A stretch of 64,000 nucleotides of DNA, from positions 11,811 to 75,810 of the forward strand of contig JBDUCQ010000001.1 in assembly GCA_040003385.1 (NCBI GenBank), read 5' to 3'. The notes under the pieces are model-generated. The model searched no databases and was not told where the DNA came from. It saw nothing but the letters and a program-made list of their open reading frames with translations. This stretch comes from Ginsengibacter sp. (GTDB taxonomy: Bacteria; Bacteroidota; Bacteroidia; Chitinophagales; Chitinophagaceae). Position numbers and translations under genes: made by a program. Shown piece by piece: positions 1,051 through 38,751 of this stretch. Positions within the stretch are counted from its first letter, which is position 1; every line of letters begins with the position of its first letter.

Positions 1051-1054
1051 ACCA

Positions 1055-1100
1055 ATTTGGAGATTTGGTGATTTGAAAATTTGAAAATGAGGTATCAGGC
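1055..1100. repeat. Spacer 1: four 8-nt tandem units (ATTTGGAG/ATTTGGTG/ATTTGAAA/ATTTGAAA) followed by GAGGTATCAGGC
   Basis: Read directly between the stop at 1050 and the ATG at 1101. Confidence 0.8.
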
Positions 1101-3545
1101 ATGCTAAAAAATTATTTCAATATTGCATTCAGAAATTTTTTACATAGAAAAGTTTTTTCATTCATCAATATTATTGGACTGGGAATAGGCATCAGCGCAT
1201 CACTCGTTATTTTCTTAATCGTTGATTATGACCTGACCTTCGATAAATTCCACAAGGATGGTGACCGGATTTTCCGGGTAGTATCTGATTTTAATTTTAG
1301 TGGAAATGATGTCCATAGCTCTGGCGTTTCTTCACCCATGGGGACAACTGTTTACAAAGAACTCGCCGGTATTGAATTCGCCGCAGCTTTTCGCACTGCG
1401 AATGAAACGAAAGTGTCGATCCCCGTTGAAAATAAAGACAGGCCTGTTGTGTTTAAAAAAGAGAAACACATTGTTTATGCAGATCAAAATTATTTCCGGC
1501 TCATCCAATATACCTGGATTACCGGCTCACCATCTACATCTTTGAAAGTTCCGTACCAGGTGGTACTCACTGCTTCAAAGGCAGCATTTTATTTTCCGGC
1601 TATCCCTGCTTTACAGGTTATAGGGAGGGAGATCATTTTTGATGATTCGGTAAGGGCCACTGTTTCAGGAATTGTTAAGGACATTGAACAAAATACTGAC
1701 TTTACTTTCACCACTTTTATTTCCAGGGCAACACTCGAAAGCACATCGTTAAAGCCGGATGACTGGGATCAATGGGACAACACGAACTCCGCGTCGCAAC
1801 TCATGATCAAATTATCAAAAGGCACCAGCCGGGCTCAGATCGTAAGCCGTGTGAACACAATCTATAAGAAATATAGAAAAGATGATCCTGAAGATCATTC
1901 TAAAACAGCGTATAGCCTTCAACCCTTAGCCACAATTCATTTCGATGAGCGGTATGATAATTTTGATCAGCGCCTTGCACATAAACCGACCATGTACGGA
2001 CTCCTTGCTGTGGCTGCATTTTTATTGATACTGGGGTGTATTAATTTTATTAACCTTACCACTGCTCAGGCATCCCAGCGCGCCAAAGAGATCGGCATCA
2101 GGAAAACGATGGGAAGCTCCAAAAGGCAGCTGGTATTCCAGTTCCTCGGTGAAACATTTTTCCTCACCCTTGTTTCTACCCTGTTGTCCCTTGCCTTAAC
2201 GCCATTGCTGCTTAAGGCATTTGCAGATTTCATTCCTGAAGGATTACATTTTCATCTGTCCCAACCTGGTCTACTTATTTTTCTTTCGGTTCTCACCATC
2301 ATTGTTACATTGCTGGCCGGTTTTTATCCAGCCCTTGTGCTTTCTTCTTATAAACCAGTTGCTGTATTGAAAAACCAGCTGGGAAAATCAACAAAAACCC
2401 GCAGTGCATGGTTCCGTAAATCGCTGACAGTTTCTCAATTTGTGATAGCACAGGTTTTTATTATTGCCACAATCCTGGTGAGTAAACAAATCCGCTTTTC
2501 TTTAAATATGGATTTAGGATTTAAAAAAGATGCGGTGGTTTATTTTTCAACCAATTATTATGATACTTCAAAAAACAGCAGGCTGGTATTACTTCAGAAA
2601 CTAAAAGCCATACCCGGGATACAAATGGTAAGCATGGCTTATAATCCTCCTTCATCAAATTCACAATGGACAAGTACCACAACATTCAATGATGGAAAAA
2701 AAGACATCGAGACCGATGTGCAGGTATTGTTGGCAGATACAAATTATGTAAAACTTTTCGGGTTGAAATTGCTTGCCGGTAATGATCTGCCATTCAGTGA
2801 TACCCCCAATAGCGTATTGATCAATGAAGCTTATGCCAATATACTTGGGTTTCATAACCCCCAGCACGCGATAGGAAAACAGCTCAGGTGGAATCAAAAG
2901 GAAATCCCGATCGTTGGAGTGCTCCGCAACTTTCACCAGAGATCTCTGCATGAAATGATAAAACCATTACTGATTGCTAATTCAGGAAATACTCTACGAA
3001 CATTCAACATGTTGCTACAGTCACAGGATCCGGCTGGAACAGTCTGGAAAGGGGCAATTGATAAAATCAATAATGCGTACAACGAAGTGTATCCTGAAGC
3101 AGATATAGAATTGAATTTCCTCGACAAGACGCTGGCTAAATATTATGAAGGAGAACAACACATTTCCGGACTCCTGCTTTGGGCAACTGTTCTGGCAATT
3201 TTTATCAGCTGCCTGGGTTTATTAGGATTAGTCATGTATATCACCAATCAAAAAACAAAAGAAATAGGGATACGGAAAGTTATTGGTGCCACCATTTCAC
3301 AGATCATCCTGCTGCTGTCAAAAGATTTTTTAAAACTAATATTTATCGCATTCCTTGTGGCCTTACCGGTTGCATGGTGGGGTGCCCATACCTGGCTTCA
3401 GAATTTCGCTTATAAAACTCCGATGAGCTGGTGGGTATACATCGCAGGCGGATTGGTAATGCTATTGATGGCTTTGATAATATTGATTGCCAGGACATTC
3501 AGGGCTGCGTCGGCAAACCCGGTTGAGTCGCTTAGAACGGAGTGA
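1101..3545 (+). CDS. MacB/FtsX-family ABC permease, copy 2 (814 aa)
   Basis: MLKNYFNIAFRN start, two periplasmic plus FtsX-like TM repeats, RAKEIGIRKTMG and KTKEIGIRKVIG motifs, ends ANPVESLRTE. Confidence 0.93.
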   Translation: MLKNYFNIAFRNFLHRKVFSFINIIGLGIGISASLVIFLIVDYDLTFDKFHKDGDRIFRVVSDFNFSGNDVHSSGVSSPMGTTVYKELAGIEFAAAFRTANETKVSIPVENKDRPVVFKKEKHIVYADQNYFRLIQYTWITGSPSTSLKVPYQVVLTASKAAFYFPAIPALQVIGREIIFDDSVRATVSGIVKDIEQNTDFTFTTFISRATLESTSLKPDDWDQWDNTNSASQLMIKLSKGTSRAQIVSRVNTIYKKYRKDDPEDHSKTAYSLQPLATIHFDERYDNFDQRLAHKPTMYGLLAVAAFLLILGCINFINLTTAQASQRAKEIGIRKTMGSSKRQLVFQFLGETFFLTLVSTLLSLALTPLLLKAFADFIPEGLHFHLSQPGLLIFLSVLTIIVTLLAGFYPALVLSSYKPVAVLKNQLGKSTKTRSAWFRKSLTVSQFVIAQVFIIATILVSKQIRFSLNMDLGFKKDAVVYFSTNYYDTSKNSRLVLLQKLKAIPGIQMVSMAYNPPSSNSQWTSTTTFNDGKKDIETDVQVLLADTNYVKLFGLKLLAGNDLPFSDTPNSVLINEAYANILGFHNPQHAIGKQLRWNQKEIPIVGVLRNFHQRSLHEMIKPLLIANSGNTLRTFNMLLQSQDPAGTVWKGAIDKINNAYNEVYPEADIELNFLDKTLAKYYEGEQHISGLLLWATVLAIFISCLGLLGLVMYITNQKTKEIGIRKVIGATISQIILLLSKDFLKLIFIAFLVALPVAWWGAHTWLQNFAYKTPMSWWVYIAGGLVMLLMALIILIARTFRAASANPVESLRTE

Positions 3546-3628
3546 TATGACTAGGTATATAGAGAATTCGAATATAAAAAGTACCCTGGGTAAGTAGAGT
3601 AACTAATGAATTAAATAAAATAATTGAC

Positions 3629-6028
3629 ATGATAAGGAACTTTTTCAAAACTGCGATCAGGAATTTATTGAGAAATAAAACATATACAACCATTAACATC
3701 CTGGGGCTCGCACTTGGATTATCTGTCTGCCTCATTATTTTCGCTATCATCAGCTTCGAAACCGGATTTGATAAATTTCACCATAAAAAAGACCGGATAT
3801 ACCGTGTGCTTACTGAGTTCCATGATGTTACCGGTGTAAATACAAGTGCGGGTGTTCCTTTCCCATTGCCACAAGCCATCAAAGCTGAATATCCGCAGCT
3901 TGAAAAAGTAACTTCTGTTTTTTCAAACGGGAATGACCAGATCATTATTTTGGATGATAAAGACAACCTTCAAAATAAATTTAAAGAAGAGACAGGCGTT
4001 TTTTTTACAGACCCATCGTTCTTCGAGATCTTCGACTTTCCATGGATAACCGGCACCCCATCATCACTCAATGAACCTAATAATGCCGCTCTGACAAAAT
4101 CGACTGCAATCAAATATTTCGGTGACTGGAAAAAGGCGATTGGAAAAACGATCCGGCGGAATAATAAACAGGACCTTAAAATTTCGGGTATCATCCAGGA
4201 CCCGCCTGCGAATACAGATTTCCAACTGAAGATTGTTGTCTCTTTCAAAACAATGAAAAATCCTACTGATGATTGGGGTTCCGTTTCCAGCTCCATGGGC
4301 TGTTATATTCTCCTTCCACCGGGCCTAACTGCTAAAAAATTCAATTCTCAGTTACCGGCATTTGTAAAAAAATATAAAAAGCCAGACCAGGTTAATGATG
4401 CGCAAGTGATAGGCCCGTTAAGTGAAGTGCACTTTAACAGTAAGGTGAGTAATTTCCTGGGCAGAACGATTAGTTGGGAACTTATCAGGACATTGATTTT
4501 TATTGCTTTTTTTATCCTTATTATCGCGTGTGTGAATTTTATCAACCTGTCTACAGCACAGGCAGTGAACCGGGCTAAAGAAGTCGGCATCAGGAAAGTT
4601 CTTGGAAGTAAAAAAGAGCAACTTCGCATTCAATTTCTTACCGAAACAACTCTGATCGTATTGGCTTCAGTAGCGATTGCTTTGGTCATCACAGTCGTAA
4701 CAATTCCGTACATTAAAAACCTGCTGAAACTACCGCTGTCAAATAATATATTTTCCAATCCTCTGATCGTTTTGTTTTTGATCATCATCATTCCCTTGGT
4801 GGTATTGTTGTCAGGCTTCTACCCTTCTGTTGTATTGTCCAGGTTCAATCCCGTGAATGCGCTAAAAAGTAAATCATTCGCCAACGCATCAAAAGGAATA
4901 ACGTTGAGAAAGGGACTTGTGGTGGTGCAGTTTGTAATCGCCCAGGCACTCATAATCGGCACCATAGTGATTGTTTTGCAAATGAATTATTTCAATTCAA
5001 AACCAATGGGCTTTGATAAAGAAGCCATCATCACCATTCCATTTCCAACGGACAGCGCCAGCCTTGCCAAACTTGATTTTTTAAAAAATAAATTAAGCGA
5101 ACAAAAGGGAATTGAAAAATTCAGCCTTGGTTTTGCCAGCCCGGCGCAAATCGGCAATTGGTATTCTAACTTCAAATTTGACCACGCAGCAAAGGAAACC
5201 GACTTCGGTGCCAACATGAAATGGGGGGATGAAAATTATCTCAGCACTTTCGGATTACAGCTGATAGCCGGGCATAATATCCCAAAAAGTGATACCACCA
5301 CCGGGTTTATCATCAATGAAACCCTGTTAAAAATGCTGGGGATGACTGATCCTGCCAGTGCGCTTAACAAAGAGATCAACATGTGGGATGGAAAAATCAT
5401 AGCCAACATCATTGGAGTGGTTAAAGATTTTCATTCTGCTTCCCTGCAACAACCTTTGCAACCCATTCTCATTGCAAGCAACAAAGAGGTGTATAATATT
5501 GCGGCAATCAAGCTCAGGCCACTGCAGGTCCGTGAACAGATCAAAATTCTCGAGCAGGTATGGACTTCCATTTACCCCGAATATGTTTTTGAATATGAGT
5601 TCATGGATAAAAAAATTGCATCATTCTATAATAATGAAAACAAATTATCCGGGCTGTACAAAATTTTTGCAGCGATCGCCATTTTCCTGAGCTGCCTCGG
5701 TTTGTATGGACTTGCCTCCTTCATGGCTGTACAACGCATCAAAGAAGTAGGGATCAGAAAGGTGTTGGGTGCATCGGTTAAAAGCGTCGTGTATTTATTT
5801 TCAAGGGAATTTATTACACTCATTTCAATCGCCTTCATTGTGGCGAGTGCAATAGCTTATTATTTTATGAAACAATGGCTGCAGGAATATACGTACCGGA
5901 TAGAAATTTCCTGGTGGATATTCTTATCAGCCGGACTTTTATCATTGTTCATCGCCATATTAACCGTTAGTTCGCAGGCCATCAAAGCGGCGGTAGCGAA
6001 CCCGGTAAAATCATTGAGGAGCGAGTGA
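3629..6028 (+). CDS. MacB/FtsX-family ABC permease, copy 3 (799 aa)
   Basis: Same architecture; INFINLSTAQ...RAKEVGIRKVLG equivalent; ends ANPVKSLRSE. Confidence 0.93.
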   Translation: MIRNFFKTAIRNLLRNKTYTTINILGLALGLSVCLIIFAIISFETGFDKFHHKKDRIYRVLTEFHDVTGVNTSAGVPFPLPQAIKAEYPQLEKVTSVFSNGNDQIIILDDKDNLQNKFKEETGVFFTDPSFFEIFDFPWITGTPSSLNEPNNAALTKSTAIKYFGDWKKAIGKTIRRNNKQDLKISGIIQDPPANTDFQLKIVVSFKTMKNPTDDWGSVSSSMGCYILLPPGLTAKKFNSQLPAFVKKYKKPDQVNDAQVIGPLSEVHFNSKVSNFLGRTISWELIRTLIFIAFFILIIACVNFINLSTAQAVNRAKEVGIRKVLGSKKEQLRIQFLTETTLIVLASVAIALVITVVTIPYIKNLLKLPLSNNIFSNPLIVLFLIIIIPLVVLLSGFYPSVVLSRFNPVNALKSKSFANASKGITLRKGLVVVQFVIAQALIIGTIVIVLQMNYFNSKPMGFDKEAIITIPFPTDSASLAKLDFLKNKLSEQKGIEKFSLGFASPAQIGNWYSNFKFDHAAKETDFGANMKWGDENYLSTFGLQLIAGHNIPKSDTTTGFIINETLLKMLGMTDPASALNKEINMWDGKIIANIIGVVKDFHSASLQQPLQPILIASNKEVYNIAAIKLRPLQVREQIKILEQVWTSIYPEYVFEYEFMDKKIASFYNNENKLSGLYKIFAAIAIFLSCLGLYGLASFMAVQRIKEVGIRKVLGASVKSVVYLFSREFITLISIAFIVASAIAYYFMKQWLQEYTYRIEISWWIFLSAGLLSLFIAILTVSSQAIKAAVANPVKSLRSE

Positions 6029-6180
6029 AGTATCAGGTATCAGGTATGAGGTGTTAGTCATTATGGATAGAGTTAGGCTAATAAAAAAGTTTGAGAAACG
6101 AATAATAAATAATAAATAAAGTATGACAAAAGATATCAACTTCTGCACCTGATACCTCATGCCTCATACCTGATACCTAA
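6029..6180. repeat. Spacer 3: inverted 7-nt-repeat arms around an AT-rich core
   Basis: 5' arm AGTATCAGGTATCAGGTATGAGGTG (6029-6053) is complementary to 3' arm CACCTGATACCTCATGCCTCATACCTGATACCT (6146-6178). Confidence 0.88.
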
Positions 6181-6190
6181 ATAATCTTAT

Positions 6191-8587
6191 ATGTTTCAAA
6201 ATTACTTCAGATCGGCCCTCCGCCATTTGCGTAAGAATAAACTGTACACTTTCATCAATATTTTTGGGTTGACAGTCGGGTTAAGCGCCTGCCTGCTGAT
6301 CGGAATTTATATCAGCCATGAATTGAGTTATGATCAATTTAATGCTAACAAAAACCGTATTGTAAGGGCTACCATGGAATATGGCAAGGCCGGCACTTTG
6401 AACACCACCGCTACAACAGGTACTAAAGTTGGTCCAGAGTTCAAACGTACATTTCCTTTGGTGGAGGATTTTGCAAGAACATTCATCAGCAGCAGCGTCG
6501 TAAAAAATGGCGACAAAATATTTGATGAATCCCATATTCTTTTTGCAGATCCCTCCTTTTTCAAAATATTTTCATTTCGCCTGCTCAAGGGCGATCCGGC
6601 CACTGTGCTCGATTCACGTGATAAGATTGTCATCACACAATCGATGGCCAAAAAATATTTTGGCAATGAAGACGCGATGAATAAAACATTAACCGCTACC
6701 GGTAAAGATTTTACCGTATCCGGTATTTGTGAAGACGTACCTCAGAATTCCCAGGTAAAATTCGATTTTGCGACCCAATTTCTAAACATGGGCAATGGTG
6801 TTAAAGATGAAACGTGGTGGACCGCCAACTGGATCACTTACTTTTTGCTTCGCGATTCGAAAAGCATTCCGCAACTGCAGGCCCAGGTCAATGCCTACAT
6901 GAAAACTCCCCACGTTAGAGCTGATGCTCGACTGGAGGGCAATGGATTCCTAAGTTACCACTTAGAACCCCTCACAAGGGTTCACTTGTATTCCCCTCTT
7001 GCAGGTTTCGAACCAAACGGGAGCATAGGGTATATCTACATGTTTGTGATCATCGCTTTGCTCATCCTGGTCATTGCTTGTGCCAATTATACCAATCTTG
7101 CTACAGCTTTGTCATCCGGACGGGGCGGAGAAATAGGAATGCGCAAAGTGATGGGTGCTTCAAAACGCCAGGTGTTCCTGCAGTTCATCGGCGAGTCTTC
7201 GATGATCACTTTTATCGCAGCAGCATTTGCTTTTGGACTGAGTGTTTTGCTGATACCTTATTTTAACAACATCACAGGAAAACAATTCACAACTGAGGTT
7301 TTATTACAACCCGTTGTCATCATCGGGCTGGTCATTTTTTCCTTGCTTGTAAGCTTTTTTGCAGGCTGTTACCCCGCTTTGATTTTATCAGGAAAACAAA
7401 TTATGGGCGTACTTAAAAAGGGTTTCACATTTACAGGCGGCAACAACCTCCTTCGAAAAAGCCTCATTGTTGCACAGTTTGGAATTTCAGTTTTCCTCAT
7501 CATTTATACGGTAGTCATCCTGCAGCAGATGCACTATATGCAAACCAAAAATCTTGGCTATGATAAAGACCACATAGTAGTATTACCCATCGGTGGCAAG
7601 ATGCTGCAGAATTTTCAGAATATTAAAGATGCCATTGAACAGGTTCCAGCAGTGCAGGGAGTTACTGCGTCCTATGAAACGCCCGAGTACGTAGAATGGA
7701 CTGATGGCCTCACTGCAACGGATGAAAAAGGCAGACACGAAATATCCCTGAATGCGATGCCTGTTGATCTGGATTTCATTAAAACAATGAACATGCAACT
7801 GGTTGCCGGGCGTGATTTTCAACCCTCTGATTTCCCGGACACTGACAGCACTAAAAATTCTAACTGGAAACAGCCATACCTGGTCAATGAGACCCTCGCA
7901 AAAAAAATAGGCTGGACACCGCAGCAAGCCATTGGCAGGAATATAGAAAACCGCTCATTAGGACCCATAGTGGGAGTTGTAAAAGATTTTAATTTCAGCA
8001 GTCTCCATGATCCCATCGGGCCATTGCTTATTTTTTTAGGGAGAAATTTTTCACGCACATTCATGGTAAGGATCAGTGGCAATAATATATCTGCCACCCT
8101 CGCCCAGATGGAAATGGTGTGGAAGCAGCGTGTTCCTGACAGACCCTTCAATTATCATTTTCTTAACGAGGACTACAATAAACTTTACCAGGCCGAAGAA
8201 CGCAGCTCTGCTCTTTTTTCTGTAGCTGCAGGACTGGCAATCGTGCTGGCGAGTCTCGGCTTATTCGGCCTTGCAGCTTTCACCACGGTACAACGCACCA
8301 AGGAGATCGGCATCAGGAGAGTGCTGGGTGCTAACATAAGCAGCATCACCCTGCTGATTGCAAAAAACTTTTTGAAGCTGGTAGGCATGGCAATTTTTAT
8401 CGCAGTCCCTTTAGCGTGGTGGGCAGGAAGTCACTGGTTACAGGATTTTGCTTTCAGGATTAAAATACGGTGGGAAATATTTATTACTGCAGCCATTGCT
8501 GCGATACTGATCGCCTTGGTAACCGTAAGCTTTCATGCAATCAGAGCTGCTGTTTCAAACCCGGTAAAATCGTTGAGAAGCGAATGA
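6191..8587 (+). CDS. MacB/FtsX-family ABC permease, copy 4 (798 aa)
   Basis: Same architecture; QRTKEIGIRRVLGA; ends SNPVKSLRSE. Confidence 0.93.
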   Translation: MFQNYFRSALRHLRKNKLYTFINIFGLTVGLSACLLIGIYISHELSYDQFNANKNRIVRATMEYGKAGTLNTTATTGTKVGPEFKRTFPLVEDFARTFISSSVVKNGDKIFDESHILFADPSFFKIFSFRLLKGDPATVLDSRDKIVITQSMAKKYFGNEDAMNKTLTATGKDFTVSGICEDVPQNSQVKFDFATQFLNMGNGVKDETWWTANWITYFLLRDSKSIPQLQAQVNAYMKTPHVRADARLEGNGFLSYHLEPLTRVHLYSPLAGFEPNGSIGYIYMFVIIALLILVIACANYTNLATALSSGRGGEIGMRKVMGASKRQVFLQFIGESSMITFIAAAFAFGLSVLLIPYFNNITGKQFTTEVLLQPVVIIGLVIFSLLVSFFAGCYPALILSGKQIMGVLKKGFTFTGGNNLLRKSLIVAQFGISVFLIIYTVVILQQMHYMQTKNLGYDKDHIVVLPIGGKMLQNFQNIKDAIEQVPAVQGVTASYETPEYVEWTDGLTATDEKGRHEISLNAMPVDLDFIKTMNMQLVAGRDFQPSDFPDTDSTKNSNWKQPYLVNETLAKKIGWTPQQAIGRNIENRSLGPIVGVVKDFNFSSLHDPIGPLLIFLGRNFSRTFMVRISGNNISATLAQMEMVWKQRVPDRPFNYHFLNEDYNKLYQAEERSSALFSVAAGLAIVLASLGLFGLAAFTTVQRTKEIGIRRVLGANISSITLLIAKNFLKLVGMAIFIAVPLAWWAGSHWLQDFAFRIKIRWEIFITAAIAAILIALVTVSFHAIRAAVSNPVKSLRSE

Positions 8588-8718
8588 GGTATGAGGTATG
8601 AGGTGTTAGGCATTAGGAGTTAGTCTAATAAAGTTCGAGAAAATGAATAATAGATAATAAATAAAGCATGATAAAAGATATGAACTTCTTCACCTCATAC
8701 CTGATACCTGATACCTAA
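8587..8718. repeat. Spacer 4: inverted 7-nt-repeat arms, homologous to spacer 3
   Basis: AGGTATGAGGTATGAGGTG (8587-8605) versus CACCTCATACCTGATACCTGATACCT (8691-8716); the core aligns with spacer 3 (…AATAAATAAAG(T/C)ATGA(C/T)AAAAGATAT(C/G)AACTTCT…). Confidence 0.88.
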
Positions 8719-8721
8719 GCT

Positions 8722-11193
8722 ATGTTCCATAATTATTTCAAAATCGGTTTGCGCAATATAGTCCGCAATAAAGTGAGTAGTATTATAAATATTGCAGGAC
8801 TTGCCATTGGAATCACCTGCGTGATGTTTATCCTCTTTTACGTGCAGGATGAATTGGGGTACGACAGGTTCATTAATAATTCCGACCTCATGTATGAAGT
8901 CAATATTGAAGGGAACTTGGGTGGGCAGGAATTTTTAAGCGGCACTACTCCGCCGCCTGCTGGAGCTGCATTGCTGAATTCATTTCCCGAGGTAGAAACC
9001 TACACAAGGATCTTCAATGCCACTGAGGAGGTGGTGCGATCAGAAGAAAACAACCAGGCAGTAAATTCTTTTACTGAAAGAAACGTGCACGGTGTTGATT
9101 CAAATTTTTTACAGTTATTCAACTTTAAATTACTACAGGGGAATGCTGCTACCTGTTTAATGCCACCAGATGCGGTTGTGATCACCAATCAGGTTGCCAA
9201 AAAATATTTTGGCAACGGGAACGCGATGGGCAAGATCCTGCTGTTTGATGATGAAAAAAAGCCATTCACCGTTACGGCGATACTGGAAAATTTACCTGCA
9301 CAATCCTCCCTGCAATTTGATATGCTACGCCCAATGTCATCTTATCCCATCGTAAAACGTTTCAGCTGGAGCTGGGTATGGACACAGGTAACCACATTTG
9401 TAAAATTAAAAGATCATCTCAATCGTAGTGCGTTACAAAAGCTGGAATCAAAATTTCCAATGATGCTGAAACAGCAGGCATCCAATGCATTCAGGCGCGT
9501 TGGCCAGCCATTGGATGAACTTGAAAAAAAAGGTGGCAAATACATTCTGCACCTTCAGCCTTTAACAGATGTGCACCTGCATTCAGCTGGAGTAAGTTCT
9601 GCCATCGCTACCCTGGGTGATATAAAATATGTTTACATCTTCTCCCTCATCGCCTGCTTTATTATCATCCTGGCTTGTGTAAACTTCATGAACCTGTCGA
9701 CAGCACAATCCGCAAAACGCGCAAAGGAAGTAGGCATACGAAAAGTGTTGGGATCAGCAAAGTCGCAATTGGTAATGCAGTTTTTTACGGAAGCATTTAT
9801 TTATACCATCATATCTACAGTCATCGCGATGATGCTCGTGCTGGTACTTATGAATTCTTTTAACCAGCTTTCCGGAAAGTCACTTTCGTTCACTTTGTTA
9901 TTTTCAAACCATAACATATTATACCTGTTAGCCGTCATCATAGTCACAGGTTTACTGGCGGGAAGCTATCCATCTTTTTACCTAACGTCTTTCGCGCCGG
10001 CTTCTGTGTTAAAGGGAAAGCTAATCAAAACAAGCATCGGCAATCTCTTTTTAAGAAATGGCCTGGTGATATTCCAGTTTACCATTTCAACAGCGCTTAT
10101 CATCTGTTCCATGGTCATGTTCCAACAACTCCAATTTACACGTAGTAAAAATATGGGGTTGAACAAAGACAATATCATGGTGATCGCTAACAGCAACCGG
10201 CTGGGGAGCGCTGAGAAAATATTCAGGGAGCAGGCTTCTGAAATGCCGGGGATAAAAAAAACAAGCATCACCACCAGCCTCCCTACTAAATATTTGTTTA
10301 CTGATGGATACGTTCCGGTTGCTGCCAGGGATGAAAGCATAGTAAAAGATATTTCACTGTCATCTTTTATCGTTGATGAAGATTTTGTTCCTGCCCTTCA
10401 GCTAAAAATCATAAAAGGCAGGAATTTTTCAACAGATTTTGCAGAAGCAGGTTCTGTAATCCTGAATGAAACAGCGGTCAGGCAAATCGGGTGGAAAGAA
10501 CCCATTGGCCAAATACTGAAATATCCAGGTAGCGGAGATGAAAACAGCCAGTTCAGGGTGGTTGGGGTGGTGAAAGATTTTAACTTCCAGTCATTGCACA
10601 CCCCGATCGCTCCATTTGCATTGTTCCATTCATCTTCAAAAACTTATGACCTCGGCATTTCTTATATCCTTGCAAGAGTCGATCCTTCCAAAACAAACAA
10701 TGTCATCAAACAATTGTCAGATAAATGGAAATCCCTCGCGCCTTCAACTCCTTTTGATTATAGCTTCCTGGATGAAGAGTTCATTGCACTTTATCAATCA
10801 GACAACCGTATGGGGAAAGTTTTTGGACTGTTTACCATTTTGTCAATTTTTGTTGCATGTCTCGGGCTATTCGGGCTAGCCACCTACACTGCAGAAAGGA
10901 GAACAAAAGAAATCGGGATCCGAAAAGTTTTGGGTGCTTCAGTGCAGGGAGTGGTGCGAATGCTTTCGAAAGAATTTTTAAAGTTGGTTCTTGTTGCAGC
11001 ACTTGTGGCTTTTCCTTTAGCATGGTGGGCAATGAACAAGTGGCTCGAAGATTTCGCTTACAGGATTAACATAAGCTGGCAGGTTTTTGTGTCAGCAGGT
11101 TGTGCTGTGTTGCTGATTACAATCGTTACTGTAAGCCTGAAAGCATTAAAGGCAGCAGTGGCAAACCCGGTAGAGAGTTTAAGAACAGAATGA
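8722..11193 (+). CDS. MacB/FtsX-family ABC permease, copy 5 (823 aa)
   Basis: Same architecture; NFMNLSTAQSAKRAKEVGIRKVLG; ends ANPVESLRTE. Confidence 0.93.
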   Translation: MFHNYFKIGLRNIVRNKVSSIINIAGLAIGITCVMFILFYVQDELGYDRFINNSDLMYEVNIEGNLGGQEFLSGTTPPPAGAALLNSFPEVETYTRIFNATEEVVRSEENNQAVNSFTERNVHGVDSNFLQLFNFKLLQGNAATCLMPPDAVVITNQVAKKYFGNGNAMGKILLFDDEKKPFTVTAILENLPAQSSLQFDMLRPMSSYPIVKRFSWSWVWTQVTTFVKLKDHLNRSALQKLESKFPMMLKQQASNAFRRVGQPLDELEKKGGKYILHLQPLTDVHLHSAGVSSAIATLGDIKYVYIFSLIACFIIILACVNFMNLSTAQSAKRAKEVGIRKVLGSAKSQLVMQFFTEAFIYTIISTVIAMMLVLVLMNSFNQLSGKSLSFTLLFSNHNILYLLAVIIVTGLLAGSYPSFYLTSFAPASVLKGKLIKTSIGNLFLRNGLVIFQFTISTALIICSMVMFQQLQFTRSKNMGLNKDNIMVIANSNRLGSAEKIFREQASEMPGIKKTSITTSLPTKYLFTDGYVPVAARDESIVKDISLSSFIVDEDFVPALQLKIIKGRNFSTDFAEAGSVILNETAVRQIGWKEPIGQILKYPGSGDENSQFRVVGVVKDFNFQSLHTPIAPFALFHSSSKTYDLGISYILARVDPSKTNNVIKQLSDKWKSLAPSTPFDYSFLDEEFIALYQSDNRMGKVFGLFTILSIFVACLGLFGLATYTAERRTKEIGIRKVLGASVQGVVRMLSKEFLKLVLVAALVAFPLAWWAMNKWLEDFAYRINISWQVFVSAGCAVLLITIVTVSLKALKAAVANPVESLRTE

Positions 11194-11335
11194 GGAGTTA
11201 GGAATTAGGAGTTAGGAATTAAGAGAAAAAGGCTCGAAAGATGTAACCAATAATGAAAAAATAATAAATAATCAACAGTATGATACAAGGCATGAAATTT
11301 TACACCTCATACCTAAAACCTAATAACTAATTCCA
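11192..11335. repeat. Spacer 5: heptad arms (AGGAGTT/AGGAATT)x4 and CACCTCATACCTAAAACCTAATAACTAATTCC
   Basis: Same G-arm / AT-rich core / C-arm layout as spacers 3 and 4, more degenerate. Confidence 0.8.
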
Positions 11336-11340
11336 ACATC

Positions 11341-13701
11341 ATGTTCAAGAATCATTTCAAGATCGCTTTTCGAAATCTCCTAAAGAACAAAGCGTTTTCT
11401 ATCATCAATATTTCGGGCCTTGCAATTGGAATGGCAAGTGCCGTACTTATTTTATTGTGGATACAAAATGAACTCGGTTTTGATAAATTTCATAAAAACC
11501 AGGACCGTTTGTACCAGGCCTGGAACCGCGGAAAATTTGATAACAAATTACAGTGCTGGAGTACAACACCGAAAATTCTCGGTCCCACCCTAAAGCAGGT
11601 TTACCCTGAAGTAGAAAAAGAAACAAGGGTTAACTGGAACCAAACTTTCCTCTTTTCTATCGGCGAAAAAAGATTAAATGTTTCGGGTACCATGGTGGAT
11701 CCCGATTTTCTTACCATGTTTAGTCTCCCTTTGGTAAAAGGGGATGTTAATAATGCGCTGGGAAATGTATACTCAATGGTGGTTACAGAAAAACTGGCTA
11801 AAAAATTATTTGGCAATGAAGATGCCATGGGCAAGACCATAAAGCTCGACAACAAAGACAATTTTACGATAACAGGCATCATGAAGGATCTGCCGACCAA
11901 TACCCGGTTTGATTTTGAATACTTGCTTCCATGGTCTTATATGCAGGTAATCAATCAGAATGACAGCGACTGGACTAATAATTCAACGCAAAATTATGTA
12001 CTGCTCAAACAAAACGCGTCTATTACAGCATTCAATTCCAAAATAAAAAATGTGATCATTGACCACTTAAATGGCAAAGAACAGATAGAAGTTTTTTTAT
12101 ACCCGTTGAGCAGGCTGCATCTCTATTCAAAATTTGAGAACGGCATTGTAGTGGGCGGGGAAATCGACATGGTTCGGTTGTTCGCAATCATCGCCGGGTT
12201 TATTTTGCTCATTGCATGCATCAATTTTATGAACCTGAGTACAGCACGAAGTGAAAAACGTGCACGTGAGGTTGGTATACGCAAAGTAGTGGGTGCGCAA
12301 AAGAGTATATTGGTTGCACAATTCCTGGGCGAGTCCATATTATTGTCATTCCTGGCGGGAATTTTTGCCATGCTCATTGTGGAGGTTTCACTGCCGGCAT
12401 TCAACACGCTTGTCAGCAAACATTTATCAGTTCATTTCAATGATATTTATTTCTGGCTTTCAGCAATCGCATTTATTTTATTTACCGGCATTTTAGCAGG
12501 AAGCTACCCGGCATTCTATCTTTCATCTTACAACCCTGTCACTGTATTAAAAGGTACTTTCAAATCGATGAATGCCCTGATCACACCGAGAAAAGTTTTG
12601 GTGGTGTTGCAATTCACATTTGCCATTTCACTGATCATTTGCACAATCATTGTTCAACGACAGATTAAATATGCGCAGCACAGGGAACTCGGCTATAATA
12701 AAAATAACCTGATCTATCATTTCCTGTCCGGCGAAATTGAGAAGAACTATCCTCTTATAAAAAATGAACTGATCGCATCCGGTGCAGCTACTTCGGTTTC
12801 AAAGAACAGCAACCCCATTACACAGGCATGGAGCGACACGTGGGATTATGTGTGGGAAGGAAAAGATCCCAATGACAAAACGGATTTCGACAGGTATTTT
12901 GCGGATGAAGATCTGGTTAAAACTGCCGGGTTTCAGATTTTACAAGGCAGAGATTTTGACCTTGAAAATTTCCCTACCGATTCCACTGCACTTATCCTCA
13001 ACGAATCTTCGGTGAAAGCAATGAATTTTAAAAACCCGATCGGGGAAATTATAAAAGACAACGGGAAAGACTGGCATGTAGTAGGTGTTATAAAAGATTT
13101 CATTCTCAGATCACCCTACGAACCAATGCGTCCTATGGTAATCGGGGGCAGCAAAGGATGGTTCAACGTCATGCACATTAAGCTAAACAGTAACAATTCT
13201 ACCGGTAAGAATTTGGCCATTGCTGAGAAAATATTTAAAAAATACAATCCACAGTATCCATTCGAATCCCACTTTGTTGATGAAGAATATGATAAAAAAT
13301 TCAACAATGAAAAACGGATCCAGGCTTTGTCAGGACTGTTTGCCGGGCTTACCATTTTTATTTCCTGCCTCGGTCTGTTTGGCCTCGCAACGTATATGGC
13401 GGAGAACCGGATAAAAGAAATCGGTGTACGCAAAGTGCTGGGAGCTTCCGTGATGAGCATTACCTCGTTGTTGTCAAAAGATTTTTTAAAGTTGGTGGCT
13501 ATTTCACTCGTCATTGCATCGCCTGTAGCGTGGTGGAGTATGCATTCATGGTTACAGGGTTATCCATACCATATCAATATCGAATGGTGGGTATTTACCA
13601 TGGCCGGATTGTTATCACTCATTGTTGCTTTGCTTACAGTAAGCTATCAAAGCATTAAAGCAGCAATAGCAAACCCGGTGAAGAGTTTGAGAACGGAATA
13701 G
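11341..13701 (+). CDS. MacB/FtsX-family ABC permease, copy 6 (786 aa)
   Basis: Same architecture; INFMNLSTARSEKRAREVGIRKVVG; ends ANPVKSLRTE. Confidence 0.93.
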   Translation: MFKNHFKIAFRNLLKNKAFSIINISGLAIGMASAVLILLWIQNELGFDKFHKNQDRLYQAWNRGKFDNKLQCWSTTPKILGPTLKQVYPEVEKETRVNWNQTFLFSIGEKRLNVSGTMVDPDFLTMFSLPLVKGDVNNALGNVYSMVVTEKLAKKLFGNEDAMGKTIKLDNKDNFTITGIMKDLPTNTRFDFEYLLPWSYMQVINQNDSDWTNNSTQNYVLLKQNASITAFNSKIKNVIIDHLNGKEQIEVFLYPLSRLHLYSKFENGIVVGGEIDMVRLFAIIAGFILLIACINFMNLSTARSEKRAREVGIRKVVGAQKSILVAQFLGESILLSFLAGIFAMLIVEVSLPAFNTLVSKHLSVHFNDIYFWLSAIAFILFTGILAGSYPAFYLSSYNPVTVLKGTFKSMNALITPRKVLVVLQFTFAISLIICTIIVQRQIKYAQHRELGYNKNNLIYHFLSGEIEKNYPLIKNELIASGAATSVSKNSNPITQAWSDTWDYVWEGKDPNDKTDFDRYFADEDLVKTAGFQILQGRDFDLENFPTDSTALILNESSVKAMNFKNPIGEIIKDNGKDWHVVGVIKDFILRSPYEPMRPMVIGGSKGWFNVMHIKLNSNNSTGKNLAIAEKIFKKYNPQYPFESHFVDEEYDKKFNNEKRIQALSGLFAGLTIFISCLGLFGLATYMAENRIKEIGVRKVLGASVMSITSLLSKDFLKLVAISLVIASPVAWWSMHSWLQGYPYHINIEWWVFTMAGLLSLIVALLTVSYQSIKAAIANPVKSLRTE

Positions 13702-13747
13702 CCCCCGCCTGAATGACATAGTCGGGCAGGCTTCGGCAAGTGCAGGA
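13702..13747. repeat. Composite REP: 27-bp hairpin CCCGCCTGAATGACATAGTCGGGCAGG (13704-13730) abutting CTTCGGCAAGTGCAGGA
   Basis: Near-identical copy at 26535-26580; the 27-mer has a 28-bp relative in opposite orientation at 38724-38751. Confidence 0.85.
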
Positions 13748-14040
13748 TCAAGTATGAGGTGTTAGGTATTAGTAGTTAGGCATTAGGAGTTAGCCTTTAA
13801 GGATTTTGAAATAGTGAAAATAATAATCATAAGAAATAATTAATAATAAGAATTATGCTAAATCTCATAAAAAAAATTACACTTCATACCAAATACATCG
13901 TATTTGTGTACCTGGTGGCCATGGTTAATTATTTTGAATATTAGACTTTAAAAAGAAAGATTTGAAAATCTTATTACATGAATGTTTTACAAGCCTGAGG
14001 TTTAAACCTTATGCCCTAATTCCTCATCCCTAATTACTTT
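13748..14040. repeat. Rest of spacer 6: heptad G-arm (GTATGAG GTGTTAG GTATTAG TAGTTAG GCATTAG GAGTTAG), AT-rich core, two degenerate C-arms
   Basis: Read directly; longest spacer in the array (343 bp in total). Confidence 0.75.
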
Positions 14041-14044
14041 TAGA

Positions 14045-16489
14045 ATGCTTACTAATTATTTCAAACTTGCACTCCGGAACCTGACAAAGAGAACAGGATA
14101 TTCGTTGTTGAATATTTGCGGATTGGCGATAGGAATAACCTGCTGCCTACTTATTTTCCAATATGTTGCTTTCGAAAGAAGTTACGACCAATTTGAAAAC
14201 AATTCAGACCAGATTGTTCGCCTGCGCCTTGACAGTTATCAGCAGGGAAAACTTTCGTGGAAGTCTGCAACTTCATACCCGGCTTTTGGTCCTACGATGA
14301 AACGGGATTTCCCGGAGGTTGAAAATTTCTGTCGTTTACATGATGCAGACCTGGTGTTGGCAAATGATGAACGAAATGTAAAATTCAAAGAAGAGAAGGG
14401 ATACTTTGCAGATCCTGCTTTCCTGCAAATGTTCAATGTGAGGTTATTGAGAGGCAACCCCATGGAAGCGCTGCAGGGGCCAGATAAAATTTTATTATCA
14501 GAAAAAACTGCACAGAAATATTTCGGCAACGAGGATGCCCTTGGAAAAAAACTTGTTTTACGGGATCCCAAGTATACAAGAACATTTGAAGTAACAGGTG
14601 TCTTCTATGAATTTCCGGAAAATTCTCACCTCATCATCAATCACCTTGCTTCTTATGCAACACTGGCCAGCATATTAATCCAGGATGGTGATACTTCGAA
14701 TGCAACTGAAACAAGCTTTGGATGGTATGATTTCTATACCTATTTACAACTGAGAAAGGGTACTGACCTCAAAAAATTCGAGTCAAAGATGCCTGCATAC
14801 TGCAACCGGTACATCAATAACCAGCAATGGGCAAAAACAAATAATGTAATGGCAGATATACACGTTATCCCACTCAGGGACGTTCATCTGTATTCGAATT
14901 ATAACCAGGAAGCTGAAGCAAACGGCAACGGCCAGTCTGTTGCATTTCTTTTCCTCATTGCATTTTTCATCATTGGCATCGCATGGATCAATTACATCAA
15001 CCTGGCAACAGCACGTTCCATGGAAAGAGCCAGGGAAGTTGGTGTGAGAAAAGTATTGGGAGCATTGCGTAGAAATCTGATCGGGCAATTCCTGGTAGAG
15101 AGCTTTTTATTGAACCTGGTTGCATTTATATTGGCAATAGTTATAGGTTGGATGCTCACTCCTTCTTTCAACAGCCTAACGGGTCGTGAAATAAACGCAG
15201 GCTTTCATTTACCTGCGAAATACTGGGCAGGATTTGGGGTCATGTTTTTGACCGGCAGTCTGCTGGCCGGCCTCTATCCCGCTTTTGTACTGTCAAACTT
15301 TAAACCCATATCTGTTCTTAAGGGTTTATTCAAAAGCAGCCAGGGTGGCATCGCTTTGCGTAAAGGGCTTATAGTTGGGCAGTTCGCCACATCAGTTGTA
15401 TTGATTGCCGGAACGATCATTGTTTTTCAGCAAATCAATTACATGAGTAAGCAAAAACTTGGAGCAGACATCAATCAAACCCTGGTAATGGATGGGGCCA
15501 GCTCGATCACGGATTCCCTTTATCAAAGTTCATTTCAGCCATTCAAAAATGACCTACTGAAAATTCCGGATGTAAAAAATGTCGCGGCTTCATCAAGTGT
15601 GATGGGAAAAGAAATTTACTGGACCAATGGATCCAGGAGGATGGGAGCTGAGAATAAAGGAGCTGTCACCTTGTACAATCTCGGGATCGATTATGATTTT
15701 ATTCCTTCTTTCGGATTACAACTTAAAGCCGGAAGAAATTTTTCAAAAGAATATAAAACGGATGAGAAAGGAATCTTACTGAATGAAAATGCCGCACGTC
15801 TTCTTGGATTTGAGGACATGAACAAAGCTGTGAATGAAAATATAGTTTCTTCAGGTGATACGGTAAAAATATTGGGGATCGTTGCTGATTATCATCACCA
15901 GGGGTTACAAAAAGCGATTGACCCAATGATATTCCGGCTGCGGCCAAACAACCGTGATGCCTATTCTGTAAAAATAGGAACGGGGAATATCAAATCTACA
16001 ATTGCCAGCATTGAACATGTTTGGATCAAACACTTTCCTGCCGATCCTTTCAATTATTATTTCCTCGATCAGCTATTTGATCAGCAGTATAAAGCGGACA
16101 GACAATTTGGAAAATTATTCGGCCTTTTCGCCTTCCTGGCAATCGTGATCGCTTGCTTTGGACTACTGGGGTTATCAGCTTTTAATGTTTTACAACGCAC
16201 CAAGGAGATCGGCATCAGGAAAGTATTGGGAGCATCTGTTCAACACTTATTGTATATCCTGTCAAAAGACTTTTTACAGCTTGTACTGATCGCATTCATA
16301 CTTGCCGTTCCTGTTACCTGGTGGGTCATGCACAACTGGCTTCAGGATTATGCTTACCGGATCAATATACAATGGTGGGTCTTTGCACTTGCTGGTTTCA
16401 TTGCATTGGCAATTGCATTGGCTACTGTTTGTTTACAGGCCATCAGGTCTACACTGGCAAACCCGGTGAAGAGCTTGAGAACTGAGTGA
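14045..16489 (+). CDS. MacB/FtsX-family ABC permease, copy 7 (814 aa)
   Basis: Same architecture; INYINLATARSMERAREVGVRKVLG; ends ANPVKSLRTE. Confidence 0.93.
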   Translation: MLTNYFKLALRNLTKRTGYSLLNICGLAIGITCCLLIFQYVAFERSYDQFENNSDQIVRLRLDSYQQGKLSWKSATSYPAFGPTMKRDFPEVENFCRLHDADLVLANDERNVKFKEEKGYFADPAFLQMFNVRLLRGNPMEALQGPDKILLSEKTAQKYFGNEDALGKKLVLRDPKYTRTFEVTGVFYEFPENSHLIINHLASYATLASILIQDGDTSNATETSFGWYDFYTYLQLRKGTDLKKFESKMPAYCNRYINNQQWAKTNNVMADIHVIPLRDVHLYSNYNQEAEANGNGQSVAFLFLIAFFIIGIAWINYINLATARSMERAREVGVRKVLGALRRNLIGQFLVESFLLNLVAFILAIVIGWMLTPSFNSLTGREINAGFHLPAKYWAGFGVMFLTGSLLAGLYPAFVLSNFKPISVLKGLFKSSQGGIALRKGLIVGQFATSVVLIAGTIIVFQQINYMSKQKLGADINQTLVMDGASSITDSLYQSSFQPFKNDLLKIPDVKNVAASSSVMGKEIYWTNGSRRMGAENKGAVTLYNLGIDYDFIPSFGLQLKAGRNFSKEYKTDEKGILLNENAARLLGFEDMNKAVNENIVSSGDTVKILGIVADYHHQGLQKAIDPMIFRLRPNNRDAYSVKIGTGNIKSTIASIEHVWIKHFPADPFNYYFLDQLFDQQYKADRQFGKLFGLFAFLAIVIACFGLLGLSAFNVLQRTKEIGIRKVLGASVQHLLYILSKDFLQLVLIAFILAVPVTWWVMHNWLQDYAYRINIQWWVFALAGFIALAIALATVCLQAIRSTLANPVKSLRTE

Positions 16490-16567
16490 GGTGTCAGGTG
16501 TGTGAGTTTTAAGGATTTAGAAACTAACGAAGAATAATAAATAATTAATAATTATTAGTAAACGCAA

Positions 16568-18934: not shown

Positions 18935-18959
18935 TTAAAAATGATAGGTAAAGAAAAAC

Positions 18960-19036
18960 AAATCATAAAATAATCAATAATTAATAATCAATAATAGGCT
19001 ATCAACTAAGACCTGATACCTGATACCTCATACTTA
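18960..19036. repeat. Spacer 8: (TAATCAA/TAATTAA) heptads plus C-arm ACCTGATACCTGATACCTCATACT just before the ATG
   Basis: Read directly; no G-arm present. Confidence 0.8.
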
Positions 19037-19040
19037 ATAT

Positions 19041-21449: not shown

Positions 21450-21555
21450 GAGGAGGTGTCAGGTATGAGGTAATAGGTATAAGGTATAAGGTGTTAGTGC
21501 GGGAGGAGAAAAGTACAAGGAGAATAAATAATCAATAATTAATAATTAATAATCA
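21450..21555. repeat. Spacer 9: G-arm heptads (AGGTGTC AGGTATG AGGTAAT AGGTATA AGGTATA AGGTGTT) plus TAAT-rich heptads
   Basis: Read directly; no C-arm present. Confidence 0.8.
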
Positions 21556-21564
21556 CAAAAACCA

Positions 21565-23976: not shown

Positions 23977-24050
23977 GGTAGGTATCAGGTATCAGGCATC
24001 AGGTATCAGGTATGAGGAATAATTAAAAATTAATAATTAATAATTGATAC
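23977..24050. repeat. Spacer 10: AGGTATC AGGTATC AGGCATC AGGTATC AGGTATG AGG plus TAATTAA heptads
   Basis: Read directly. Confidence 0.85.
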
Positions 24051-24056
24051 AGAAAA

Positions 24057-26534: not shown

Positions 26535-26610
26535 CCCCCGCCTGGATGACATAGTCGGGCAGGCTTCGGCAAGTTCAGGATGGAGGTGTTAGGCGTTAGG
26601 AAATTAGAAA
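26535..26610. repeat. Spacer 11: composite REP (27-bp hairpin 26537-26563 plus CTTCGGCAAGTTCAGGA) followed by heptad G-arm
   Basis: Two mismatches over 53 nt against 13696-13748. Confidence 0.85.
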
Positions 26611-26665
26611 CTAAAATGTTCAATTACTTGAATTATAAATAATCAATATTTAATAATTATTTATC

Positions 26666-29092: not shown

Positions 29093-29172
29093 AGGTGTGA
29101 GGATTTAGGGGTTTGTAGTTAGGAGTTAACATTTTAAGACAACCAACGAGTCACCATATACGAAAAGTATCG

Positions 29173-38387: not shown

Positions 38388-38533
38388 ATTAATTATTGAT
38401 TACTAATATTATGATTATTTTTTATTTGTTACAATACCCGGTGTGAGACTCATGATAGCGTATTTATTCGATTTAAAAGTATGTTTGAAACGGCCTCATA
38501 AAAAAGACGTGAAGAAAATTTGTTTGGTTGTCG

Positions 38534-38751
38534 CCTGCCTGCCGGTAGGCAGGTAAAGAAATGAAATTGATGTTACAAAAGTTGGGTATATTTTCTATGC
38601 TGGCAAGTCGCACAAAAGCTTGGATATATTCAACTGCTTGAGCTAATTTCATTTTAGACAAACTATTAAATTTTTAGTCTTTTTTTGAAGCCCTGCCTAC
38701 CGGCAGGCAGGCTTGATTTTTTACCTGCCCGAGTGATGTCAGTCAGGCGGG
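38534..38751. repeat. Cluster of CCTGCC-ended palindromes: 38534-38553, 38692-38711 and a 28-bp hairpin at 38724-38751
   Basis: CCTGCCTGCCGGTAGGCAGG and CCTGCCTACCGGCAGGCAGG are exact reverse complements; CCTGCCCGAGTGATGTCAGTCAGGCGGG is related to 13704 and 26537. Confidence 0.85.

Follow-up and report, generated by a model that had tools for sequence, protein, structure and literature searches.

The permease array

The 64,000-nucleotide (nt) stretch of Ginsengibacter sp. analysed here (contig JBDUCQ010000001.1, positions 11,811 to 75,810; hereafter the window) carries a tandem array of permease genes. A truncated paralog, g1, is followed by eleven complete MacB_PCD+FtsX paralogs, g2 to g12, of about 800 amino acids (aa) each; all array genes are co-directional (window 1-29092; Table 1). 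The spacers of the array are numbered sp1 to sp12. Three consecutive spacers, at the junctions g3/g4 (spacer 3), g4/g5 (spacer 4) and g5/g6 (spacer 5), contain seven-nucleotide tandem repeats (heptads) whose inverted arms reach from one stop codon almost to the next start codon. These hairpins are the subject of the present analysis.

Genes g1 to g6 are assigned to the family by Pfam and g7 to g12 by alignment, with 27-55% aa identity to the others. Pairwise identity between paralogs is 28-45% aa, with a single pair at 55%; third codon positions are about 32% identical, which corresponds to saturation. Judged by this divergence, the paralogs are ancient. The genes that flank spacers 3-5 share only 33-37% aa and 45-48% DNA identity, again with third positions at about 32%. 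The gene termini are conserved, ending in NPVKSLR[TS]E-stop and beginning with MFKNYFK.

Hairpins in spacers 3, 4 and 5

In each of these spacers the 5' arm is G-rich, (AGGTATS/AGGAKTT)n, and begins at or over the stop codon. The 3' arms are C-rich and stop 12, 5 and 7 nt short of the ATGs at 6191, 8722 and 11341. By repeat finding, the arms of spacers 3, 4 and 5 are 28, 22 and 21 nt long, are 86%, 91% and 76% complementary and lie 91, 85 and 92 nt apart; the loops (85-92 nt) are A/T-rich. Period-7 arrays of 3.0-5.4 copies are called by Tandem Repeats Finder (TRF) in every arm. In spacer 4 the g4 stop codon itself (TGA, 8585-8587) sits inside the first copy of (ATGAGGT)3. The preliminary description, made from the sequence, had placed a G-rich arm at or over the stop in spacers 3 and 4 and more weakly in 5, a complementary C-rich arm ending about 5-12 nt before the ATG, and an AT-rich loop of about 85-90 nt between them. 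Direct reading, repeat finding and TRF agree on this layout, and the measured distances bear it out.

Folding in silico, a check that the same description had proposed, predicts stems of 19-27 base pairs (bp). Minimum free energies in ViennaRNA are -47.1, -42.0 and -30.6 kcal/mol for spacers 3, 4 and 5, with z scores from 200 dinucleotide shuffles of -4.8, -4.9 and -3.9; the same shuffle test gives the remaining spacers z scores from -1.95 to +1.75. In this model the hairpins of spacers 3-5 are beyond chance expectation and that of spacer 6 is only partial.

The arms also match across junctions. A perfect 24-nt inverted repeat (6030-6053 / 8691-8714) brackets the entire gene 4, and the spacer 3 G-rich arm matches the spacer 4 C-rich arm better than its own partner. 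Such a repeat could permit inversion of the gene or long-range RNA pairing.

Table 1. Permease array, hairpin arms and heptad arrays, in window coordinates (TRF, Tandem Repeats Finder; ORF, open reading frame).
Feature	Position	Strand	Evidence	Remark
Tandem array of 11 complete MacB_PCD+FtsX permease paralogs, g2-g12	1101..29092	+	ORFs, Pfam, alignment	
g1, truncated permease paralog	19-1050		ORFs	
Spacer 3 5' G-rich heptad arm (GTATCAG)n	6030..6057	+	repeat finding	begins 2 nt past g3 stop (6026-6028)
Spacer 3 relic permease gene 3' end, AAAAGTTTGAGAAACGAATAA = KSLRNE-stop	6085..6105	+		in loop; frame differs from g3
Spacer 3 loop AATAATA heptads	6101..6119	+	TRF	
Spacer 3 3' C-rich heptad arm (ACCTSAT)n	6147..6178	+	repeat finding	inverted-repeat arm 6149-6176
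Spacer 4 5' G-rich arm (ATGAGGT)3, then GTTAGG-type units	8584..8626	+	repeat finding, TRF, fold	inverted-repeat arm 8584-8605
Spacer 4 3' C-rich arm (ACCTGAT)n	8691..8716	+	repeat finding	inverted-repeat arm 8691-8712
Spacer 5 5' arm (AGGAGTT/AGGAATT)n	11188..11225	+	repeat finding	overlaps g5 stop (11191-11193); inverted-repeat arm 11201-11221
Spacer 5 3' arm (ACCTAAW/AACTAAT)n	11304..11334	+	repeat finding	inverted-repeat arm 11314-11334
AATAATA-equivalent arrays	8642-8664, 16533-16554, 18969-18995, 21523-21555, 24018-24049, 26638-26659		TRF	
Spacer 6 G-rich heptads	13749..13793	+		weak pairing with CCTAAT-type units at about 14000-14030; loop about 200 nt; z -1.95
Spacer 7 G-rich heptads from stop	16487..16506	+	direct reading, fold	no partner arm
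Spacer 8 lone C-rich arm (ACCTGAT)n before g9 start	19011..19033	+	TRF, fold	no G-rich arm
Spacer 9 G-rich heptads past stop	21450..21497	+	TRF	no partner arm
Spacer 10 (AGGTATC)n, directly past stop	23977..24017	+	TRF	5.4 copies; no partner arm
Spacer 11 G-rich heptads behind 47-nt GC-rich insert	26582..26607	+	direct reading	no partner arm
Spacer 12 G-rich heptads past g12 stop	29093..29130	+	direct reading	no partner arm

Heptads across the array

The hairpins are a subset of a wider pattern, in which the spacers are made up of slippage-prone tandem repeats of 7 nt. G-rich AGGNNNN heptads follow the stop codon in nine of the twelve spacers, and only three or four of the twelve form a hairpin. 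In spacers 3, 4, 5, 7, 9, 10 and 12 these heptads either include the stop or sit within 0-2 nt of it; those of spacers 6 and 11 come after a shared 47-nt GC-rich insert. AATAATN heptads stand ahead of most starts without any hairpin. The polarity is fixed: G-rich units (AGGTATS, AGGNGTT) are found at or over the stop, and AATAATN together with G-depleted, C-rich units (SATACCT, CCTAAT) before the start. Both arms are present only in spacers 3-5 and, weakly, in spacer 6; here the repeat units behind the stop and ahead of the start are reverse complements of each other, and the spacer folds into a long imperfect hairpin.

TRF reports 16 period-7 arrays in the window. This density is about five times that of related Chitinophagaceae loci (1.29 Mb in total), whose commonest period is likewise 7. 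The units carry GG only and lack the G3-4 tracts of a G-quadruplex; at best a weak two-tetrad structure is expected. Most heptad units hold a stop triplet (TGA in ATGAGGT, TAG in GTTAGGN, TAA in AATAATN, TGA in CCTGATA). Since seven is not a multiple of three, three copies place stops in all three frames directly past each gene (e.g. 8584-8604, 11188-11225, 24018-24049).

The insert in spacers 6 and 11 is a hairpin-forming element, CCCCCGCCTGRATGACATAGTCGGGCAGGCTTCGGCAAGTKCAGGAT, that resembles repetitive extragenic palindromes (REPs). Its two copies (13702-13748 and 26535-26581) are about 92% identical and are inserted right behind the TAG stops of g6 and g11. Spacer 1 has period-8 G/T-rich units after the stop (1055-1088).

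Comparison with related arrays

The array is present in other genera, where g4 orthologs show 59-79% identity. An exact-protein look-up returned no record identical to the g4 of the window. The closest g4 relative found by protein search is only 79% identical, and a fine-scale comparison of orthologous hairpins is therefore impossible. Array length and paralog order vary among relatives; L204 apparently has no g5 ortholog between g4 and g6.

The comparison covers 154 permease-permease spacers from 80 orthologous Chitinophagaceae loci. These spacers are non-homologous to those of the window, and the hairpins are absent from the orthologous arrays. Some spacers are just 8-11 nt long; others contain GC-rich palindromes or tandem units unlike those of the window, with a period of 7 or 8. 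Stems of at least 8 bp that bridge stop and start are not enriched, being found in 31% of 94 relatives' spacers and in 33% of shuffles. Base composition is polarised within the spacers of these arrays, with G exceeding C in the first 35 nt and G depleted in the last 35 nt (90 spacers, p = 9e-8).

The two nearest relatives found, L204 and L206 (78-79% aa), have no G-rich arm. L204 is syntenic (g2-g3-g4-g6-like) at 75-80% aa identity. It has (GATTTGAT)n behind its stops, ACCTGAT-type heptads before g4 and CCTAAT-type heptads before the g6-like start. The C-rich types match the window: ACCTGAT also precedes g4 there, and CCTAAT is the spacer 5 type. The L204 spacers form no hairpin, with fold energies of merely -15 and -6 kcal/mol. 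L206 has wholly other repeat units. From this sequence comparison, the C-rich arrays before g4 and g6 are older, and the complementary G-rich arrays, hence the hairpins, are confined to the window lineage.

Period-8 G/T-rich units, GATTTGAT and ATTTGGAA, follow the stops in both relatives (L204 3516-3621 and 6020-6082; L206 1582-1700 and 4096-4208). This suggests that octads came first and that AGGTATS heptads took their place in the window lineage. In L058, a Terrimonas metagenome-assembled genome, (CTCTGTGC)n and (CACAGAGA)n period-8 arrays alternate in a cluster as several successive palindromes (19538-20135, 2015-2115).

Age and origin of the spacer cassette

Alignment of spacers 3 and 4 (134 columns) gives 81% identity; the figure is 75% for spacers 4 and 5 and 62% for 3 and 5. 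The repeated unit, or cassette, is about 140 nt long and consists of the G-rich arm, a relic gene end, AAT heptads and the C-rich arm. Since the paralogs are saturated and spacers 3 and 4 remain so alike, the cassette must have spread long after gene duplication. The preliminary description had called the spacers homologous and the flanking genes not. Its first half holds, as the spacers are far more alike than the genes; its second half does not, as the genes are all MacB_PCD+FtsX paralogs.

The relic in the spacer 3 loop is an intact 21-nt copy of the 3' end of a permease gene, with its last six codons and stop. Counted from the first base of the g3 stop, its first codon begins 59 nt downstream. 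All 21 of its 21 positions are identical to a real gene end in L048, and 19 of 20 match the family consensus, where the best of 2000 shuffles reaches 17; nhmmer gives E = 0.07. Degenerate copies occur at the aligned sites of spacers 4 (about 8629-8650) and 5 (about 11228-11248), with significance in spacer 3 only. No relic gene starts are found in the loops by nhmmer. A relic of the host's own gene end inside a repeated cassette argues for copied junction DNA rather than a transposon.

A small ORF in the loops (ATGAYAMAAG...) was considered and rejected, since it varies in length and every change between spacers 3 and 4 is non-synonymous. Displaced gene-end relics also stand behind inserted palindromes in relatives' spacers (L012, L017, L025, L043, L036, L002).

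The cassette would have been copied recently between neighbouring junctions, likeliest by gene conversion anchored on the conserved gene termini. The G-rich arms would most likely derive from the C-rich arms via inverted duplication or template switching.

Tests for a selected RNA stem

The preliminary description had suggested that the stem hides the start region until a ribosome terminating on the upstream gene melts the 5' arm. The geometry allows this: on its 5' side the base of the stem is 0-2 nt away from the stop, and on its 3' side 5-12 nt separate it from the start. Predicted accessibility also points this way. The probability of being unpaired over positions -25 to -1 is 0.24-0.44 for g4-g7 and 0.45-0.65 for the other genes. 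When a ribosome at the stop is mimicked by forcing the stop and 12 nt single-stranded, this value rises from 0.44 to 0.65 in spacer 3 and from 0.29 to 0.49 in spacer 5; in spacer 4 it goes from 0.24 to 0.22. The spacer 4 start stays closed because the heptads re-pair in a shifted register.

The tests for a selected coupling device are negative or mixed. Compensatory changes had been named as a sign of a maintained stem; for spacers 3-5, RNAalifold reports a single compensatory pair, with a covariation term of +3.2 (positive values penalise). RNAduplex finds no partner specificity among the arms. The spacer 3 G-rich arm pairs with the spacer 4 C-rich arm at -47.7 kcal/mol and with its own partner at -44.4, and the partnerless G-rich array of spacer 10 pairs best with the spacer 3 C-rich arm (-56.2). 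A G·U test, which compares sense with antisense folds to detect a stem that acts as RNA, shows no consistent difference: the sense fold is the more stable in spacers 3 and 4, the antisense fold in spacers 5 and 6. Among the relatives' spacers the ratio is 55 to 39, which is not significant. On this modelling, coupling is geometrically possible and lacks comparative support.

The Bacteroidetes promoter TTTG-N17-23-TAnnTTTG is absent from every spacer on either strand. In a hairpin-plus-T-run scan of 1-20000, spacers 1-8 are free of terminator-like sites, and in spacers 3-5 the arms are not followed by a T-run; scans for sigma-70 promoters and for terminators were uninformative. Rfam yields no matches at gathering thresholds over the window. 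The sole Rfam match with E<1 in 1-30000, Clostridiales-3, lies inside a gene and was dismissed as chance.

The same heptads in metagenomes

Metagenome contigs were scanned for AGGTATSAGGTATSAGG; all counts in this section are among the matches listed. AGGTATS arrays occur on contigs of 35-73% GC, which implies that the arrays come from many phyla. They are found in co-directional, convergent and divergent intergenic regions. An inverted partner lies within 400 nt of 24 of the 127 arrays, and in all 24 cases the G-rich arm is 5' (binomial p = 1e-7). Palindromes built from different repeat units lean the same way, with G-first cases ahead by 17 to 4. Lone arrays follow a related pattern: beside stops, G-sense arrays outnumber C-sense arrays by 27 to 11, and beside starts C-sense arrays outnumber G-sense arrays by 17 to 7 (Fisher p = 0.0017, with crude ORF calls).

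Two metagenome samples contain the same locus with 100% identical flanks and different copy numbers of AGGTATC, four in one (L185 3359-3389) and eight in the other (L193 932-990). The AGGTATC unit slips in nature.

Other genes and repeats in the window

Downstream of the array, window 1-32554 also encodes a DUF4097 protein, an ABC ATPase (30443-31105) and a TolC-like OEP. At least 12 permease paralogs are thus accompanied by a single ABC ATPase gene in window 1-32554, and a membrane-fusion protein gene is not seen there.

A second heptad-armed inverted repeat, (AACACTC)n/(GAGTGTT)n, is located at 50959-51126. Its arms are 31 nt long and 94% complementary, its polarity is C-first, and it is followed by T8. 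This repeat (50959-51133) lies between a convergent DinB-like ORF (50440-50898, + strand) and a GH3 gene (51169-53418, - strand), and it looks like a terminator.

A 200-aa ORF has a weak match to IS200-like Y1 transposases and is possibly a RAYT (44398-44664 and 44691-45293, - strand). Its neighbours are 16-nt and 49-nt tandem repeats and 26-nt GC-rich inverted repeats, TCTTGGCGCAAGCGTCCGCTTGTGCC. The region 44398-45293 may be a REP/RAYT system; its sequence is unrelated to the heptads. Further paired palindromes are found between genes at 38533-38712 and 46801-46921: GCCTGCCTGCCGGTAGGCAGG (21 nt, 100% complementary, 138 nt apart) and GGTCCTCGTTACAAACGAGGACC. Similar palindromes of the CTGCCGGCAGG type occur in relatives' spacers (L007, L015, L018).

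Interpretation

On balance, the hairpins are best read as recent, lineage-specific palindromes of heptanucleotide simple sequence repeats (SSRs), copied between neighbouring junctions and not a conserved part of array expression. If transcribed, each would be a 19-27-bp imperfect double-stranded RNA that masks the G-poor leader of the next cistron and so lowers or insulates translation of g4-g6. The stem would also be a plausible RNase III substrate. Gain or loss of heptads would change stem length, and each junction would become a mutable rheostat, as for the heptamer hairpin of the hmw genes described below. An effect on g4-g6 translation, RNase III processing and a heptad dial are the most likely consequences that the model offers. 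Should the stems act in RNA, each junction of the 12-paralog efflux-permease array would have its own mutable expression dial, a cheap route to permease diversification.

Several points weigh against this reading. Transcription of the spacers, stem formation in vivo and cleavage are hypothetical. C-rich arrays persist at orthologous sites and the polarity is strictly G-first across phyla, both of which may be signs of selection beyond mutation. Spacers 5 and 6 share a matched TTAGG/CCTAA flavour, which could reflect maintained pairing. For the proposed gene conversion, no tract that extends into the genes can be told from background conservation of the termini; identity between g3 and g4 over their final 30 nt, at 90%, falls inside the spread of all paralog pairs (mean 77%, maximum 93%). 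Finally, the cassette was counted within the 64-kb window, and copies outside the array would favour a mobile element.

A somewhat unlikely alternative is that the hairpins are a neutral by-product of slippage and quasi-palindrome template switching. They would be tolerated in a harmless orientation, with ribosomes and helicases keeping the stems open and expression unaffected. The patchy and recent distribution, the interchangeable arms, the natural drift in copy number and the lack of covariation and strand bias all agree with this. Among long SSRs, moreover, heptamers rank first in abundance in many bacteria (Mrazek 2007, according to PMC4679880 and PMC4692102). However, initiation would probably be affected by stems of -27 to -47 kcal/mol right beside a start, and C-rich arrays are kept at orthologous sites at 75-80% aa identity. 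The 24:0 polarity among the metagenome matches listed, with the stop and start association, implies at least selective filtering.

Long-range translational coupling has a low probability. In this scheme the stem hides a start that lacks a Shine-Dalgarno (SD) sequence, and the next gene initiates when a terminating ribosome melts the 5' arm or crosses the base of the stem. The position of stop and start, the less accessible start regions predicted for g4-g7 and their exposure by forced opening in spacers 3 and 5 are in its favour. G-depleted leaders would suit SD-independent initiation, and the 8-11-nt spacers of relatives suggest that the array is normally tightly coupled. Against it, only three or four of twelve junctions have the hairpin, orthologous arrays and the nearest relatives have none, and neither covariation nor partner specificity is seen. 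Spacer 4 stays closed through shifted-register re-pairing, and the same kind of hairpin lies between convergent and divergent genes elsewhere.

A bolder form of coupling is likewise improbable. Here the paired heptads would be a selected device of SD-less Bacteroidota that holds stop and start at one stem base; the ribosome would re-initiate across the 130-160-nt spacer, as in a prokaryotic shunt, and slippage would tune each paralog. If this were true, the rule of G-rich past the stop and C-rich before the start, never the reverse, would be a general, undescribed layer of intercistronic control.

A mobile element and an inverton are both unlikely. It is highly improbable that the cassette is an attC-like integron site, as the preliminary description had allowed, or a miniature inverted-repeat transposable element with heptad arms as terminal inverted repeats. 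Its terminal inverted repeats, AT-rich interior and near-identical copies at several junctions speak for a mobile element, and the fixed outside-in arm polarity is what transposase-recognised ends would show. However, there is no integrase or transposase beside the array among the ORFs of at least 200 aa searched. Direct reading finds neither an R''(RYYYAAC)/R'(GTTRRRY) core pair at the stem ends nor a flanking target-site duplication. Inside the loop is a remnant of the 3' terminus of the host gene itself, and within the window copies occur only at consecutive junctions of one array. The 'cassettes' of such an integron would be members of one ancient paralog family, and orthologous arrays are without the sites. 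The attC-like site was rejected for want of an integrase among those ORFs and of core sites, and for this paralogy of the 'cassettes'.

Invertons are common in Bacteroidota, and 21-28-nt inverted repeats around an AT-rich segment, or the perfect 24-nt repeat around gene 4 (6030-6053 and 8691-8714), could in principle flip the loop of about 90 nt or the gene and phase-vary the paralogs, but this is scarcely credible: the promoter motif given above is missing from both strands of every spacer, no recombinase is present among the searched ORFs of at least 200 aa, and all three loops, with the gene-end relic, have the same gene-sense orientation.

The preferred reading, of recent SSR palindromes, carries a lesson for annotation: long spacer hairpins that seem 'conserved' can be recent SSR palindromes and not structured RNAs. 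Two features are worth following, namely the strict G-first polarity across phyla, for which no published explanation was found, and the lone C-rich arrays retained at orthologous starts.

Comparison with known systems

In the MS2 coat-replicase system a stem hides the downstream start and upstream translation can open it. The MS2 5' partner lies within the upstream coding region and is conserved with covariation; the window partner comes after the stop, with neither conservation nor covariation. REPs, which RAYT transposases spread, are short-looped, GC-rich palindromes of 20-40 nt. The window stems differ in their length of about 140 nt, AT-rich loop, SSR arms and lack of a GTAG head. Like REPs, their bacterial interspersed mosaic elements and RNA-processing or stabilising stem-loops, as outlined in PMC4423207 and PMC8219983, they are palindromes between co-transcribed genes that may set the relative stability or expression of neighbouring cistrons.

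TAACTGA heptamers are direct repeats in Beggiatoaceae, Cyanobacteria and a few Bacteroidetes (MacGregor 2015, PMC4679880). Both they and the window repeats are lineage-specific intergenic heptamers with fixed orientation to the neighbouring gene. The TAACTGA repeats are often a few nt from a start codon, and a post-transcriptional role has been proposed for them (PMC4679880). They are nearly always direct (1 inverted in 170) and upstream of starts; the window, in contrast, has inverted pairs and stop-proximal arrays.

The best mechanistic precedent, and a close experimental one for the RNase III processing that the preliminary description had allowed, is the hmw heptamer hairpin. In the 5' untranslated region of Haemophilus influenzae hmw1A, (ATCTTTC)n is one arm of a long hairpin with a G-rich partner that is cut by RNase III (Rapun-Araiz et al. 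2025, PMC12721329). The hairpin is required for expression and for change of the SSR; stem integrity controls downstream expression, and SSR number varies (PMC12721329). In hmw as in the window, where the stems of -27 to -47 kcal/mol are in silico, a heptamer SSR and a G-rich arm pair to make a long imperfect hairpin ahead of a start. Unlike in the window, the hmw SSR arm is 5' and pyrimidine-rich, its G-rich arm is not an SSR and the loop is short. The hmw element lies at -175 to -54 of the untranslated region, and those of the window are intercistronic and touch a stop codon. RNase III cleavage and phase variation have been demonstrated for hmw and are hypothetical for the window.

A full-text literature search returned no paper for AGGTATC or AGGTATG repeat strings. 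As a kind of feature, the window hairpins have been described already in other bacteria. In Xanthomonas, GGGAATC arrays are intergenic and have a strong bias to adjoin or overlap a stop, and each genome has 70-75 inverted pairs of them in convergent orientation (Rehm et al. 2015, PMC4692102). Array length differs from species to species, and the role is given as unknown (PMC4692102). Like these and the GGGGAYT arrays of Nostoc (PMC4692102), the window repeats are intergenic tandem units of 7 nt that adjoin stops, singly or as convergent G-first pairs able to form stem-loops. In the published arrays, length and sequence differ among close species and position is kept. The window differs in four respects. 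Firstly, its units have only GG, so that a three-tetrad G-quadruplex is impossible. Secondly, its host is an SD-less member of the Bacteroidota. Thirdly, its repeats belong to a single array of paralogs, where they span the distance from stop to start around a loop of 85-92 nt. Fourthly, AATAATN and lone C-rich arrays accompany them. Stop-hugging convergent heptamers are thereby extended from Xanthomonas to Bacteroidota, and the AGGTATS unit to contigs across the whole GC range given above.

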